Assembly: GCF_003334305.1 (NCBI RefSeq)
Contig: NZ_QOWS01000008.1
Length of the DNA stretch: 64,000 nt
Reading direction: 5' to 3' (one strand)
Source of the DNA: Escherichia coli
Lineage (GTDB): Bacteria > Pseudomonadota > Gammaproteobacteria > Enterobacterales > Enterobacteriaceae
In this document: in pieces, positions 26,242-33,806 of the stretch
How the letters are laid out: each line of letters opens with the position of its first letter
Position numbering within the stretch: position 1 is the stretch's first letter
Made by a program: the position numbers and the translations under genes
Notes under the pieces: model-generated
Told to the model about the DNA's origin: nothing
Database searches by the model: none
Seen by the model: the letters and a program-made list of their open reading frames with translations, nothing else

Positions 26242-26310
26242 TGCCGGATGCGCTTCGCTTATCCGGCCTACACGCGATGCCAGGTCAGATAAGCGAAACG
26301 CATCCGACAT
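26242..26310. repeat. REP (repetitive extragenic palindromic) elements between ugpB and ugpA
   Basis: TGCCGGATGCGCTTCGCTTATCCGGCCTACA and a second inverted copy GCGATGCCAGGTCAGATAAGCGAAACGCATCCGACAT. Confidence 0.7.
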
Positions 26311-26318
26311 TACACTGA

Positions 26319-27635
26319 TTAAGACTTCGTCGATTTCTCAAAGCGGCGCAGCAACTGATTTCCACGCTCAACGGCGGTATCCAGTGCCTGCTGTGGTGTC
26401 TTCTTACCGGTCCACACGCTCTCCAGCTCTTCATCCACAATCACGCGGATCTGCGGCATGTTGCCCAGACGCAGCCCTTTGGTGAACGGCAACGGCGGCT
26501 TGTTCAGCATCTGACGCGTCGCGGTATCCGCCCCTGGGTTTTTCTCATAAAAGCCCTGCTCACGGGTCAGGTCATACGCTGCTTTGGTGATTGGCAGATA
26601 ACCGGTTTTCTGATGCCACTCGGCAGCGTTTTCTGGCTTCGCGAGGAAGTCGAGGAACTTCGCCACGCCGGTATACGTTTCTTTATTTTTGCCCTGCATC
26701 ACCCACAGGCTGGCCCCGCCGATAATGGCGTTTTGCGGTGCATCTTTCGCATCGGCGTCGTAAGGCATCATGCCTACGCCATAGTTAAATTTGGCGTACT
26801 CACGAATATTAGCGAGAGAACCGGAAGAGGCGGTGGTCATCGCGCAATCACCGTTATAGAACTTCTCGGTGGATTCATCCTTACGACCGACGTAGCTGAA
26901 GTCGCCCTTCTTGTTCATCTCCTCGAGCATGGCGATGTGTTTCACCTGCTCCGGCTTGTTGAACTCCAGCACCGCGTCCGTGCCGTCAAAGCCGTTGTTT
27001 TTGCTGGCAAACGGCAGACCGTTCCAGGCGCTAAAGTTTTCCAGTTGGATCCAGCCCTGCCAGCCGCTGGCGTAGCCGCACTTCATACCGGAGGCTTTCA
27101 GTTTCGCGGCATAGTCCGCCAGATCCTGCCAGGTTTTCGGCGGTTGTTCCGGGTCTAATCCTGCTTTCTTGAAGGCGTCTTTGTTGTAATAGAGAACGGG
27201 GGTCGAGCTGTTGAATGGCTGGGAGAGTAAGTGGCCCGTTTTGCTGTCGGAGTAGTAACCGGAAACCGTCGGCACAAACTGCGACTCATCGAATTGAATC
27301 CCCGCCTCTTTAAACACGTCATATACCGGTTTAATGGCTTTCGATGCCATCATGGTGGCGGTGCCAACTTCATAAACCTGCAAAATAGCCGGAGCGTTGC
27401 CGGTACGAAATGCGGCAATCCCCGCGCTTAAATTCTGTTCGTAGTTGCCTTTATAGGTCGGTACAATTTTGTAATCCGGATTTTCGGCGTTAAAACGTTG
27501 GGCCAGAGAATCCACCTCTTTACCCAGTTCCCCTTCCATAGAATGCCAGAACGGAATGGTCGTCACTGCCTGTGCATTCCCCATTAACGCCAGTCCGAGC
27601 GCCAGTGCTGAAGCTGTATAATGTAACGGTTTCAT
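26319..27635 (-). CDS. ugpB: sn-glycerol-3-phosphate periplasmic binding protein
   Basis: 438-aa ORF with signal peptide [23 protein letters not shown]. Confidence 0.95.
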
Positions 27636-27749
27636 CGTTTATCTCTCTTGTTGTACCGAATGCGCGAATTCACGCGTTTTATGCTCGCGGGGTAACATGA
27701 CATGCTCGAATTACAGAAAAATAACTTTTTTGTTACATTTGTAAGATAG

Positions 27750-27776
27750 TAAGGTGTCAGAAAGATGACAAGGCGG
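27750..27776 (-). promoter_or_regulatory. Pho-box-like element in ugpB promoter
   Basis: Minus strand reads CTTGTCATCTTTCTGACAC, resembling the CTGTCATA(A/T)A(T/A)CTGTCAC PhoB consensus; ugp is a known Pho regulon operon. Confidence 0.5.
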
Positions 27777-27870
27777 TGACGGCGTGGGTGAGGGAAAATG
27801 GGAGATGGGGCACGGATAAGCGGAAAAATAGAAGGTCTGAATCAAACTCTACAGATTACTCATCGTTTCA

Positions 27871-27962
27871 TGCCGGATGCGGCGTAAAGGCCTACAAGAT
27901 CGTGCAAATTCAATATATTGCAACTCACCCAGTAGGCCTGATAAGCGCAGCGCATCAGGCAA
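27871..27962. repeat. pair of inverted REP elements (BIME-like) between livF and ugpB
   Basis: TGCCGGATGCGGCGTAAAGGCCTACA ... GTAGGCCTGATAAGCGCAGCGCATCAGGCAA. Confidence 0.7.
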
Positions 27963-28021
27963 TTTTACATTTGTCACCTGTCTCAAAGGAGTCTTTTGAC
28001 TCCTTATCAATCAACGTGTTA

Positions 28022-30778: not shown

Positions 30779-31701
30779 ACTTTCTCTACCTCCGGGCGAC
30801 CCAGAATACCGGTCGGCATCACCAGCAGCACCAGAATCAGCAGGGCAAATGAAACCACATCCTTATATTCCGTACTCAGATAGGCAGAAGAGAGCGCCTC
30901 CGCAATCCCCAGAATCAGCCCGCCAATCATCGCCCCCGGAATACTGCCAATCCCACCGAGCACCGCAGCGGTAAAGGCTTTCATCCCGGCCATAAAGCCG
31001 ATGTAGGGGTTAATCACACCGTAGAACTGACCGAGCAGTACACCGGCCACCGCCGCCATTGCCGCGCCAATCACAAAGGTCAGCGCAATCACCCGGTCGG
31101 TGTTGATGCCAAGCAGGCTCGCCATTTTCAGATCTTCCGCGCAGGCACGACAGGCGCGCCCCATACGGGAATAGCGAATGAAAATCGTCAGCGCCAGCAT
31201 GGCGAGGAAAGTAACAATCCAGATCACCGCCTGCATGGTGGTAATAGAGGCAGAGAAGTTTTCGCTATGGCCCACCACCCACTGCCCGTTAAACAGGCTC
31301 GGCAGCGCCACGTCGCGCGAACCTTCGGTCAGGCTGACATAGTTTTGCAGGAAGATGGACATACCGATTGCCGAGATGAGCGCAATCAGGCGCTTGGAGT
31401 TGCGCACCGGGCGATAGGCCACCCGTTCGATACTCCAGCCGTAGGCGCTGGCGATGACGATTGCGCCGACGAATCCCGCCGCCACCAGCAGCCAGCCGGT
31501 ATCAATGCCCATCATCATCAGCGCGGCGATGATCATAAATGAGACATAGCTGCCGATCATATAAACCTCGCCGTGGGCGAAGTTGATCATGCCGATAATG
31601 CCGTAAACCATGGTGTAGCCGATGGCAATCAGCGCGTAGGTACTGCCCAGCGTGACGCCGTTAAACATCTGCTGCAAGAAATATAAAAACTGCTCAGACA
31701 T
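30775..31701 (-). CDS. livH: branched-chain amino acid ABC transporter permease
   Basis: 308-aa membrane [37 protein letters not shown]. Confidence 0.95.
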
Positions 31702-31748
31702 AAGGTAACCTTTCTAAACCCGCCCGTTTTTCACGGGCGGTGGGATGA

Positions 31749-32858
31749 TCACTTGGCTGCCGTGGATGAACCGTCGGCGTGCCACTGGAAGACACCAAAA
31801 TCAAATCCCTTAAGATCGCCTTTTTCATCCCAGTTCAGCGGCCCAATCACGGTGTTTGCACCGTTTGCTTTTAAATCTTTCACCAGCGCCAGCGGCTCAT
31901 CGCTGCCGGTACGCTCAAGGGCTGTTGCCAGAGATTGCACCGCCGCGTAAGTGATCCAGACATAAGGCCCGGACGGATCTTTCTTGTCTGCTTTCAGCGC
32001 ATCAACGATGCCCTGGTTTGCCGGATCCTGGTCATAGCGTTTTGGCATGGTGACCAACATGCCTTCGGCAGCATCGCCAGCAATATTCGACAGCGACGCA
32101 TTACCCACACCTTCCGGCCCCATAAACTGGGTTTTCAGGCCAACGGAACGGGCCTGGCGCAGCATCTGCCCCATTTCCGGGTAGTAACCGCCGTAGTAAA
32201 CGAAGTCGATGTTTTCTTTTTTCAGGCGGGCGATCAGCGCGGAGAAATCTTTCTCGCCAGCGGTAATGCCGTCGAAGAAAACAACATTGGCGTTAGCCGC
32301 TTTCAGCCCGTCCTGCACCGAACGTGCCAGCCCTTCGCCATATTGTTGTTTGTCGTGAATGATGGCGATGCGCTGGGGCTTCACCGTCTCAAGAATGTAT
32401 TTTGCCGCCGTTGGCCCCTGGGAAGAGTCCAGCCCGGCAGTACGCATAATGTGTTGATAACCGCGTTGGGTCAGCTCCGGGTTGGTCGCTCCCGGCGAGA
32501 TCATCAGAATACCTTCGTCTTCATAGATATCTGACGCAGGCTGGGTAGAAGAAGAACACAGATGACCAATAACGTATTTAATGCCGTCATTAACGATTTT
32601 GTTGGCGACCGCAACGGCTTGTTTCGGGTCGCAGGCGTCGTCATATTCCACGCCAACCAGCTTGTCGCCCTTAATTCCCCCTTTGGCATTAATGTCTTTA
32701 ATCGCCTGACGCGCGCCGTTAAATTCCATATCACCCCACTGGGCAATCGGGCCGGACATCGCGCCGACAACGGCGACTTTAATATCGTCAGCCATAGCGG
32801 TGTGTGAAATTGCCAGTGCAATCATCCCTGCGATGATAGTTTTCGCATTCCGTTTCAT
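31749..32858 (-). CDS. livK: leucine-specific periplasmic binding protein
   Basis: Recognised protein starts [23 protein letters not shown] at ATG 32858 (369 aa); paralog of livJ. Confidence 0.94.
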
Positions 32859-33281
32859 AGTCAAAAATCCCCATTCGTGATGTTGTGTTGCTTTGTTTTT
32901 ATGTGTTAACAAATCAGACTGTTCTTTTTTTATACTGCACTGTTTTTGCCTGTCTGATTAAGGGTTTAGCGCAGTATTTTGTGATAATAGCGATTAAAAT
33001 CCCTATTTTTCAGTCGATTAAGAACAGATAATATTCTGAATTTATTGATAGATAAACAGAAAAAAGTGCCTTTGTCAGCATAAAATAACGGCACAAAGGG
33101 CGGAATAATTCACTACCATTCAGGGGATTATGCTGGGTATTTTTCATTCTCTAATGTTTTAACTTTGTAATTATTGCTGTTAAAAAATTAATCACCTGCC
33201 AAAAGAAATAAAAAAGAGAAAGCCTCCGATTAAATTATTTCGCTACACTGGTTCCACTTTTGTGATTTACACGGGTTACCC

Positions 33282-33665
33282 ATGAAGCTGACCATCATTC
33301 GATTAGAAAACTTTAGCGACCAGGACCGGATTGACCTGCAAAAGATCTGGCCGGAGTATTCCCCTTCCTCTTTACAGGTTGACGATAACCACCGTATCTA
33401 CGCCGCGCGTTTTAACGAGCGCCTGCTCGCTGCCGTACGGGTAACCTTAAGCGGCACCGAGGGAGCACTGGATTCCCTGCGTGTGCGGGAAGTCACCCGA
33501 CGTCGCGGTGTGGGGCAATATCTGCTGGAAGAGGTTTTGCGTAACAATCCTGGCGTTTCATGCTGGTGGATGGCGGATGCAGGCGTGGAAGATCGCGGTG
33601 TGATGACGGCGTTTATGCAGGCACTGGGATTTACGGCACAGCAGGGCGGCTGGGAGAAGCGTTAA
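33282..33665 (+). CDS. panZ: PanD maturation factor (GNAT-like)
   Basis: 127-aa ORF MKLTIIRLENFSDQDRIDLQKIWPEYSPSSLQVDDNHRIYAARFNERLLAAVRV; position between livK and livJ. Confidence 0.9.
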   Translation: MKLTIIRLENFSDQDRIDLQKIWPEYSPSSLQVDDNHRIYAARFNERLLAAVRVTLSGTEGALDSLRVREVTRRRGVGQYLLEEVLRNNPGVSCWWMADAGVEDRGVMTAFMQALGFTAQQGGWEKR

Positions 33666-33706
33666 TCGTCAAGTTTGATTTCAAAAGTGATGACCAACGA
33701 GAAATT

Positions 33707-33806
33707 GCCTGATGCGTTACGCTTATCAGGCCTACAATGTGTGTTGCAATTTACTGATTTCTTTGGATCTTGTAGGCCGGATAAGGCGTTTACGCCGCAT
33801 CCGGCA
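33707..33806. repeat. pair of inverted REP elements (BIME-like) between panZ and livJ
   Basis: TGCCTGATGCGTTACGCTTATCAGGCCTACA ... TGTAGGCCGGATAAGGCGTTTACGCCGCATCCGGCA. Confidence 0.75.

Follow-up and report, generated by a model that had tools for sequence, protein, structure and literature searches.

The window analysed here is a stretch of Escherichia coli DNA of 64 kb, and the region that concerns us corresponds to the E. coli ugpQCEAB / livFGMHK / panZ / livJ genes. A stretch of 8 kb that covers ugpA, ugpB, livFGMHK, panZ and livJ matches several E. coli chromosomes with 100% identity. It holds three REP clusters with six REP copies: C1 between ugpB and ugpA, C2 between livF and ugpB, and C3 between panZ and livJ (Table 1), with 26242 and 33806 being exactly the first and the last REP bases. 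The K-12 versions of these spacers presumably carry REP/RIP annotations in GenBank and EcoCyc. For NC_000913.3, the RefSeq feature table contained no repeat features, and in the literature searched no paper combines ugpB with REP.

Table 1. REP copies, linkers and other hairpins of the ugp-liv region (positions in the window).
Feature	Position	Strand	Sequence or description
C1a, intact short REP, ugpA-proximal	26242..26271	-	TGCCGGATGCGCTTCGCTTATCCGGCCTAC; transcribed minus strand, GTAGGCCGGATAAGCGAAGCGCATCCGGCA
C1b, degenerate inverted REP, ugpB-proximal	26282..26309	-	CCAG in place of GTAG
C2 y REP with 10-bp internal deletion	27871..27896	+	ACGCCTTATC missing relative to MG1655
C2 L linker	27897..27931	.	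36 nt, CTAC (ends 27895) to GTAG (starts 27932)
C2 short z (z1-class) REP	27932..27961	+	GTAGGCCTGATAAGCGCAGCGCATCAGGCA
Non-REP hairpin directly after the livF stop	27993..28015	-	AAGGAGTC-AAAA-GACTCCTT, then UGAG
Non-REP hairpin, livK-livH junction	31720..31740	-	CCGCCCG-loop-CGGGCGG, then GUUU
C3 short z (z1-class) REP	33706..33735	+	TGCCTGATGCGTTACGCTTATCAGGCCTAC
C3 L linker	33736..33771	.	36 nt; IHF-core-like AATCAGTAAATTG at 33747-33759, minus strand
C3 intact y REP	33772..33806	+	GTAGGCCGGATAAGGCGTTTACGCCGCATCCGGCA
Non-REP hairpin just after the livJ stop	33838..33856	-	RNA CGGCAAC-UUUGG-GUUGCCG, without U-run

REP and BIME elements, their classes, their effects on mRNA 3' ends and their associations with IHF and gyrase have been described since the 1980s-1990s. 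A REP is an imperfect palindrome of 30-40 nt in which the tetranucleotide GTAG is conserved on the 5' side of the stem foot (PMC3333891), and the four copies that match GTAGGCCKGAT-N-CATCMGGC exactly are of this kind. With a gap of N6-24 this pattern is matched exactly at 4 places in the window, while 100 dinucleotide shuffles gave an expectation of 0.00, which bears out the original prediction of REP palindromes at ugpA/ugpB, ugpB/livF and panZ/livJ. A looser half-site scan across the whole 64 kb found no further REP head-plus-tail pair; a fixed-gap REP pattern with 3 mismatches matched nothing, because the REP loop length varies, and was superseded by the variable-gap scans. The high copy number and intergenic dispersal of a REP family were found as well: the C3 query occurs at no fewer than 40 places per genome in all 5,426 E. 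coli genomes, so that the genome-wide similarity whose absence would have spoken against the prediction is present, and 120 kb of sampled MG1655 sequence contains 18 additional REPs. The whole of C1 is single-copy by blastn (median 1 place per genome) and therefore this exact variant is not itself repeated. Rfam holds no REP family as such, its REP-derived sRNA families match only below threshold, and the other Rfam hits (miRNA, snoRNA) were rejected as noise. The assignment of the three clusters to the REP/BIME family is right.

The clusters had been described as inverted pairs of a GCCGGATGCGGCG...CGCCTTATCCGGCCTACA palindrome. The inverted arrangement is found at each of them, but the integrity of the partners is not, as two of the six copies are damaged. 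Both were counted as decayed members, C1b for want of the GTAG and the C2 y copy for the loss of one arm; without its 10 internal bases the C2 y REP is by itself no longer a palindrome, and this deletion allele is rare (10 of 5,426 E. coli genomes). The quoted sequence type is likewise correct for the C3 y REP only (33772-33806), since the other intact copies are two of the short GCCTGATGCGCTRCGCTTATCAGGCCTAC type and one hybrid, and the remaining two are degenerate or carry a deletion.

In the literature, BIME-1 is described as a y REP with a z1 REP inverted relative to it, in single copy, with a long and well-conserved L linker that often contains an IHF binding site, while BIME-2 is built of y and z2 REPs with a short S linker in multiple tandem units (PMC3333891). 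C2 and C3 each have one y-L-z unit, tail-to-tail and without a tandem array, with a y REP of 34 nt that carries CCGG, a z REP of 29 nt that carries CCTG, and 36-nt linkers that can be aligned with each other. C2, in its MG1655 and strain 537-20 forms, is 87% identical to C3 over 109 nt including the linker. Against the Rfam ES036 consensus the C2 linker scored 28.6 bits, which is below threshold, with 20 of 21 core positions matching, and the C3 y REP shares an identical stretch of 32 nt with the first hairpin in the Rfam naRNA4 (REP325) consensus. C2 and C3 are BIME-1 elements by the published definition, where the z1 label follows from BIME-2 being y + z2 together with the length comparison and not from a printed consensus. 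They share with BIME-1 (RIB/RIP) the y and z inversion, the conserved 36-nt linker, the IHF-type core, the single unit and a position where transcription units have their 3' ends, and depart from it in the shortened C2 y REP of the window strain.

At sucB-sucC and tldD-yhdP, which are named as BIME-2 loci (PMC6379681), the z REPs are 35-37 nt long and stand in tandem arrays with gaps of 7 and 12-16 nt. The window clusters resemble these loci in the y REP and in the alternating inversion of the copies, but lack the long z REPs, the short linkers of these lengths and the tandem units; neither a z REP of 35-37 nt nor tandem repetition was found in the window. C1 is an atypical tail-to-tail REP pair with a 10-nt linker, inside the ugpBAECQ operon. 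Despite its short linker it is no BIME-2, as it consists of a single unit with REPs that are degenerate or 29 nt long; C1a has a y-type head and tail (CCGG) with a length of only 29-30 nt, and the same sequence is present in MG1655. The substrate of the TnpA-REP/RAYT transposase is a REP with a 5' GTAG and a 2-base stem mismatch, together with an iREP or a linker with a CT cleavage site (PMC3333891). The GTAG is present in four window copies and CTAC iREP tails are present too; the window contains no gene for a REP-associated tyrosine transposase.

The RNA folds gave minimum free energies of -49.4, -50.7, -43.3 and -48.9 kcal/mol, with z of -6.1, -4.0, -3.75 and -3.8, respectively, and 0 of 200 shuffles folded as well as the native cluster RNAs. 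Canonical intrinsic terminators were not found at the livF, livJ and panZ ends by a simple promoter/terminator scan, which showed no overall enrichment either. Published 3' ends were taken from Supplementary file 1 of PMC7815308 and their coordinates were checked on the MG1655 sequence, this being the Term-seq strain and not the strain of the window. The C3 y REP lies on the livJ transcript 58 nt after the livJ stop, and the C3 z REP, 40 nt after the panZ stop, is the distal element of the same transcript. The livJ 3' end was mapped (minus strand) to 3598392, which is 163 nt past the livJ stop; the complete C3 y-L-z1 hairpin has its foot 4 nt before this point. At precisely the position of this MG1655 end, 12 bp are inserted in the window strain. 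The z REP of C2 is carried on the livF transcript, 60 nt downstream of the livF stop codon, and none of the curated published Term-seq ends is a livF/C2 end.

C1b begins 9 nt past the ugpB stop codon (26319-26321) and is 86% complementary to C1a, with which it can form an RNA duplex of about 24 bp; the C1 spacer RNA folds with -49 kcal/mol (z -6.1). The published ugpB 3' end, 3590983 (26293 in the window), is located within the C1b arm of this duplex and not at its foot. Counted along the 5' arm of an uninterrupted 24-bp stem, it is nucleotide 17, and ugpB RNA truncated there folds with -12.8 kcal/mol and has no terminal stem. Since the end is inside the 5' arm, a simple exonuclease barrier fails to explain it. 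Intercistronic REPs at malE-malF and hisJ-hisQ cause more periplasmic binding protein to be made than membrane subunits. C1 resembles them in its location between ugpB, which encodes the binding protein, and ugpA, the first of the membrane-subunit genes, and in forming a very stable RNA hairpin with an RNA 3' end inside, but differs from them in that the mapped end is not at the base of the duplex and one REP is degenerate, without GTAG. The role of an mRNA-stabilising 3' structure, which was suggested for all the clusters, is thus well supported for C3, where the 3' end is just past the hairpin foot, and plausible but not clean for C1, where the end is within the duplex, while C2 has no reported end.

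Another function of REPs is exerted on translation. It was reported that REPs at 15 nt or less after a stop codon stall terminating ribosomes, and REP-mediated down-regulation of translation was shown by Liang, Rudd and Deutscher (2015), both as given in PMC12306157. C1b resembles such regulators in its distance from the ugpB stop, whereas the other window REPs are 40-60 nt from the nearest stop (livF 60, livJ 58 and panZ 40 nt), and therefore C1 is the sole cluster within the 15-nt range.

The clusters were also proposed as IHF and gyrase sites. In C3, AATCAGTAAATTG fits WATCAR, with G at the sixth position, and in C2, ATTCAATATATTG at 27908-27920 has one mismatch to the IHF motif WATCAANNNNTTR, which is defined together with an A/T-rich flank; the two occupy homologous positions in the linkers. 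Since 15 copies of the relaxed IHF motif were counted in the window and 4.2 were expected, such a match is weak evidence by itself. Judged by sequence, predicted IHF sites are plausible at C2 and C3 only. For gyrase the case is different. One could suppose that the clusters serve chiefly in the DNA, where gyrase would bind and cleave them and so organise the supercoiling between the ugp and liv transcription units, for gyrase was found to bind REP DNA (Yang and Ames, 1988, as cited in PMC6379681) and the y-type REP, which is intact in C3, is the preferred cleaved unit (PMC6379681). Yet the cleavage enrichment in vivo was published for BIME-2, the tandem arrays of y and z2 (PMC6379681), and none of the three clusters is BIME-2, for which reason the gyrase claim is not supported. 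Moreover, ugpB, ugpA, livF, livJ, yhhK and panZ are not mentioned in the accessible part of the supplementary tables of the Topo-Seq paper. We regard this explanation as very improbable.

All three sites are polymorphic among E. coli strains. The whole 199-bp spacer of C3 is replaced by ataR-ataT (ataRT) in 1,625 of the 5,426 E. coli genomes, the C2 segment gives way to a TPR-protein gene in O157:H7, and C1 is replaced in about 240-320 genomes. All three elements are thus dispensable in some E. coli strains, which argues against an essential role. In the ugpB-ugpA slot the REP pair is found in about 94% of E. coli genomes and a 175-nt CCCTCACCC/GGGAGAGGG palindrome in about 5%; this palindrome is unrelated to REP and folds with -84 kcal/mol (z -4.5). 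The option that the ~320 genomes without C1 share the REP-mediated deletion of LH10-b-1 was rejected, this deletion being found in one genome only; of the other genomes that lack C1, at least 241, possibly nearly all, have a different palindrome. An L005 allele of this slot, with a Citrobacter-like REP, was found in no complete E. coli genome. For C3, a class of 1,718 records with 80-90% identity was considered as an inverted or diverged allele and rejected, as the match is to C2, the paralogous BIME, in genomes without C3. A structured ugpB-ugpA spacer, with z under -2, is kept by 68 of 79 Enterobacterales species (median z -4.8), and at least three unrelated palindrome families occupy the slot. 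The livF-ugpB and livJ-panZ spacers beyond Escherichia and Citrobacter hold other elements or none.

The explanation that fits these data best, and which we consider very likely, is that the clusters are three REP/BIME copies, C2 and C3 being BIME-1 and C1 an atypical pair, with proposed roles in RNA and DNA and a mobile origin. Once transcribed, each cluster would fold into a long, very stable hairpin in which a REP pairs with its inverted partner. In MG1655, as shown by Term-seq, the livJ transcript stops a few nt past the C3 foot; the C3 hairpin would set this end, either because 3'-to-5' exonucleases are halted by the structure or because termination takes place there, and it may serve the convergent panZ transcript too. 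The C1 hairpin would separate the ugpB segment from ugpAECQ and, by analogy with malE-malF and hisJ-hisQ, likely protect or process the upstream ugpB message, which would yield more binding protein than membrane subunits. In the DNA itself, IHF probably binds to the L linkers of C2 and C3, as their motifs suggest. Elements of this class are substrates of the REP-associated tyrosine transposase, which would be the agent of their spread, and they are evolutionarily labile.

One may ask whether the clusters have any selected local function at all, or are selfish or neutral remnants of the REP-associated transposase whose hairpins and 3' ends are incidental. The presence/absence polymorphism at the three sites, the decay of two of the six copies and the different or missing elements in the livF-ugpB and livJ-panZ spacers outside Escherichia and Citrobacter all point in this direction. 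However, a strong ugpB-ugpA hairpin is kept in most species and in E. coli strains without the REP pair, which pure neutrality at C1 can hardly explain, and the livJ mRNA 3' end coincides with the C3 foot, so that C3 at least shapes the transcript; neutrality throughout is therefore doubtful. For C1, another option is that it is mainly a candidate site of endonucleolytic processing, where the near-perfect ~24-bp duplex is cut by RNase III or another enzyme and ugpB is uncoupled from ugpAECQ. RNase III has a duplex-length requirement, for which the 24 bp of C1 suffice, and the mapped end is inside the stem, where no hairpin protects it in the truncated RNA. Yet the ugpB 3' end is a single curated peak from one growth condition, and Term-seq ends within strong structures can also come from ligation or reverse-transcription bias, and we think of this option as unlikely. 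A related suggestion is that the ugpB-ugpA slot is selected for any very stable hairpin and has repeatedly been refilled by unrelated palindromes, in E. coli as well as among the Enterobacterales, the REP duplex being processed endonucleolytically (e.g., by RNase III) and not only blocking exonucleases. Such processing would account for a 3' end mapped within the stem, but as a whole we hold this suggestion, too, to be rather improbable.

REP/BIME repeats at the ends of transporter messages are ordinary biology, long described and already known, and in a region that is among the best-studied stretches of the chromosome the result has little importance beyond correct annotation. As a by-product, it ties a BIME-1 element (C3) to the experimentally mapped livJ mRNA 3' end at the level of the locus, and as a correction, these clusters should not be associated with gyrase. 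The three spacers are exchangeable cassettes in E. coli, and caution is needed before they are assumed to be fixed regulatory parts.

Two of the non-REP hairpins can be mentioned separately. The one after the livF stop resembles a weak terminator and comes before C2 on the livF transcript. At the livK-livH hairpin, which is outside the original prediction, there is a published 3' end, 3596418 (31716 in the window), and this hairpin marks the binding-protein/permease junction of liv, as C1 does for the ugp operon.

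The REP clusters lie exactly where the original prediction had put them: in the ugpB-ugpA spacer (C1), between livF and ugpB (C2) and between panZ and livJ (C3). By sequence reading, an inverted-repeat search and scans for REP half-sites we found six REP copies in the three clusters of the 64-kb window, far above chance, as the pattern GTAGGCCKGAT-N6-24-CATCMGGC has four matches in the window against 0.00 expected (100 shuffles). No REP head and tail occur together elsewhere in the 64 kb in the half-site scan. The REP sequence quoted in the prediction is present only in the second C3 copy. 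Two other copies are altered: in C1 the copy nearer ugpB is degenerate, with CCAG replacing GTAG, and the y copy of C2 has lost ten internal bases (ACGCCTTATC) relative to the K-12 reference MG1655, an allele found in 10 of the 5,426 complete E. coli genomes.

Coordinates of the REP clusters and related features (window positions unless a comparison locus, L, is named), with the predicted minimum free energy (kcal/mol) and z-score of the transcribed RNA
Feature	Coordinates	Location	MFE; z
C1 REP pair	26242-26271 and 26282-26309	ugpB-ugpA spacer	-49.4; -6.1
C2 REP pair	27871-27896 and 27932-27961	from livF 3' end to ugpB promoter	-50.7; -4.0
C3 REP pair	33706-33735 and 33772-33806	between convergent panZ and livJ	livJ strand -43.3; -3.75. 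panZ strand -48.9; -3.8
IHF-core-like ATTCAATATATTG	27908-27920	C2 L linker	
IHF-core-like AATCAGTAAATTG	33747-33759, minus strand	C3 L linker	
Non-REP hairpin	31720-31740	livK-livH	
12-bp insertion GACCAACGAGAA relative to MG1655	33692-33703	adjoining C3 z1 REP	
Whole 199-bp C3 spacer	33666-33864	livJ stop to 4 nt inside panZ 3' end	
943-bp ataR-ataT segment	L004:1589-2534	livJ-panZ	
203 nt replaced in O157:H7 str. TW14359	27819-28021	first 203 nt after livF	
Replacement of ~1 kb	L087:15591-16631	same place, O157:H7 str. TW14359	
135-bp deletion	L088:480-500; window 26268-26403	ugpB-C1, E. coli LH10-b-1	
175-nt composite palindrome, CCCTCACCC/CCCTCTCCC...GGGAGAGGG/GGGGTGAGGG family	L089:242-416	ugpB-ugpA spacer, E. 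coli 2017-02-2CC	

Several E. coli chromosomes match the 8 kb around the clusters at 100% identity, and nearly all of the 5,426 genomes do so at 95-99%. In the MG1655 comparison the minus-strand order is ugpQ-C-E-A-B and livF-G-M-H-K, followed by panZ on the plus strand and then by livJ and rpoH; the offset from window to MG1655 coordinates at ugpB is +3,564,690. Membership of the REP/BIME family, which the prediction had also claimed, is borne out by the C3 query, which hits 40 or more places in each of the E. coli genomes. In its intact form C2 shares 87% identity with C3 over 109 nt, linker included. Over 32 nt the y REP of C3 has the same sequence as the first hairpin of Rfam naRNA4 (REP325-derived RNA), and the C2 linker fits the Rfam ES036 consensus (GUGCAAAUUCAAUAAAUUGCA...GUAGGCCU); both matches fall below the gathering score, as is expected for fragments. 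Unlike C3, C1 is single-copy by blastn, with a consensus head and tail and a short centre that is a private variant.

PMC3333891 describes BIME-1 as a single-copy y plus z1 unit whose L linker is long, conserved and often the carrier of an IHF site, and BIME-2 as tandem arrays of y plus z2 with short linkers. Our class calls were calibrated on the MG1655 sucB-sucC and tldD-yhdP loci, which are named as BIME-2 loci (PMC6379681). In these loci z REPs of 35-37 nt alternate with y REPs of 34 nt, with gaps of 7 and 12-16 nt and as many as seven units per array, whereas C2 and C3 each have a 29-nt z REP, a 34-nt y REP, a 36-nt gap and one unit. Judged by z length, gap and single unit, both are thus assigned to BIME-1. 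In C1 a 29-nt REP with y-type (CCGG) head and tail is joined to a decayed partner by a tail-to-tail linker of 10 nt; on this architecture we class C1 as an atypical REP pair and not as BIME-2.

IHF and gyrase sites had been predicted as well. The linkers of C2 and C3 carry IHF-core-like sequences at homologous positions; these are suggestive and not proof, since the window holds the relaxed motif at only ~3.5 times the expected frequency, and candidate IHF sites are plausible at C2 and C3 only. The gyrase proposal is unsupported: in vivo cleavage enrichment has been published for BIME-2, and the supplementary tables of that study that we examined do not mention the ugp, liv or panZ cluster genes (PMC6379681). 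This reading should be dropped for all three clusters. All of this falls within long-established REP/BIME knowledge and the three clusters are therefore already-known biology; only two threads are mildly new, namely an RNA 3' end inside the C1 duplex and a ugpB-ugpA slot that appears to have been repeatedly refilled by unrelated palindromes.

As transcribed-strand RNA each cluster is predicted to form a single long hairpin by pairing of a REP with its inverted partner, and in every case none of 200 shuffles was equally stable. Mapped 3' ends with which the proposed mRNA-stabilising 3' structures can be compared exist in MG1655 Term-seq data (PMC7815308, Supplementary file 1), and we checked their coordinates on the MG1655 sequence using 50 nt upstream, the end nucleotide and 10 nt downstream. 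The end at 3598392 (minus strand), which carries the authors' automatic label "antisense to panZ", lies 163 nt after the livJ stop and 4 nt past the foot of the hairpin that the whole of C3 forms. This looks like a REP-defined mRNA end, and for C3 the proposed 3' role is right. For C1 it is plausible, and here the end falls inside the duplex: the end at 3590983 (window 26293, minus strand), which bears the label "primary" for ugpB, maps 26 nt past the stop codon of that gene, within the 5' arm of the 24-bp duplex and not at the hairpin foot, which is a misfit with a simple exonuclease block. It is possible that this end arises from RNase III-type processing or from mapping bias. No 3' end for livF/C2 is among those listed in Supplementary file 1. 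Judging from position in the file, the LB OD 2.0 tab appears to be the source of the ugpB end, and the M63 tab that of the liv ends.

The non-REP livK-livH hairpin is a stem followed by GUUU, and a further end, 3596418 (window 31716), falls on its U-tract. The stem is unchanged between strains, and the loop is UGAAAAA in the window strain versus UAAAAUG in MG1655. This hairpin stands at the binding-protein/permease junction of the liv operon, like C1 in the ugp operon. The 12-bp insertion of the window strain falls at the exact site of the MG1655 livJ mRNA 3' end. Supplementary file 2 of PMC7815308 also lists a Rho termination region within the 3' portion of ugpB, a short way upstream of C1 (MG1655 3591086, minus strand, ~77 nt before the ugpB stop; window ~26396). 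Apart from any effect of the REPs, this region may add to the polarity between ugpB and ugpA.

C1 starts 9 nt past the ugpB stop, and the remaining REPs lie 40-60 nt from the nearest stop codon. According to the summary in PMC12306157, REPs that lie within 15 nt of a stop have been reported to make terminating ribosomes stall, and only ugpB comes within this range.

Scanning species-representative genomes with UgpB gave 80 syntenic loci. The ugpB-ugpA spacer is 52-317 nt long in all 79 loci with both genes, and it has a folding z-score below -2 in 68 of them (median -4.8). Its sequences are of at least three unrelated kinds: E. coli-type REP pairs (Escherichia, Citrobacter, Klebsiella, Lelliottia and Pseudocitrobacter faecalis), CCCTCACCC...CCCTCTCCC / GGGAGAGGG...GGGGTGAGGG palindromes (Enterobacter, Kluyvera, Phytobacter, Leclercia, Pluralibacter and Buttiauxella) and plain hairpins (Pectobacterium, Dickeya, Erwinia and Yersinia). 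That unrelated sequences give a structured spacer here speaks for a role of a strong hairpin downstream of ugpB, of whatever origin. The same data could alternatively mean that the slot attracts palindromic elements. Within E. coli the K-12-type REP pair occupies C1 in 5,105 genomes, and in roughly 240-320 the spacer is instead a 175-nt palindrome of the GGGAGAGGG family (-84 kcal/mol, z-score -4.5), the family that is also present at this position in Enterobacter, Kluyvera and Phytobacter. The palindrome is a low-copy repeat in E. coli (median 3 places per genome), and its family may correspond to the "box C" repeats, which it resembles. One genome of the 5,426, LH10-b-1, carries a deletion in which the REP tail CCGGCCTACACGC is fused to a similar CCGGTCCACACGC inside ugpB; one REP and the last ~28 ugpB codons are removed, and the truncated UgpB reading frame now stops at a TAA within the REP.

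The livF-ugpB and livJ-panZ spacers are far less constant across species than ugpB-ugpA. Among the species-representative loci BIME-1 is found in them only in Escherichia; in the remaining genera these spacers hold different REP pairs, elements resembling ERIC/IRU or ordinary terminators. O157:H7 str. TW14359 has, in place of the livF hairpin and the C2 BIME-1, a segment encoding a 248-aa tetratricopeptide-repeat (TPR) protein, and the 183-nt ugpB promoter region is kept (98% conserved). The whole C3 spacer is one of two alleles; the other, found in 1,625 of 5,426 E. coli genomes and also in E. albertii, has a canonical terminator for livJ together with the toxin-antitoxin genes ataR and ataT. 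One breakpoint coincides exactly with the livJ stop codon and the other is 4 nt inside the panZ 3' end, so ataT overlaps panM/panZ by 4 nt. Across genera the occupant of the livJ-panZ spacer varies between BIME-1, ataRT, ERIC-like elements and other REP pairs. In six Citrobacter, Enterobacter and Buttiauxella loci (L010, L014, L017, L019, L021 and L040) this spacer contains a conserved ~130-nt element with the core CCCCGGTCACTTACTTATGTAAGCTCCCGGGGATT, which we take to match the ERIC/IRU repeat core.
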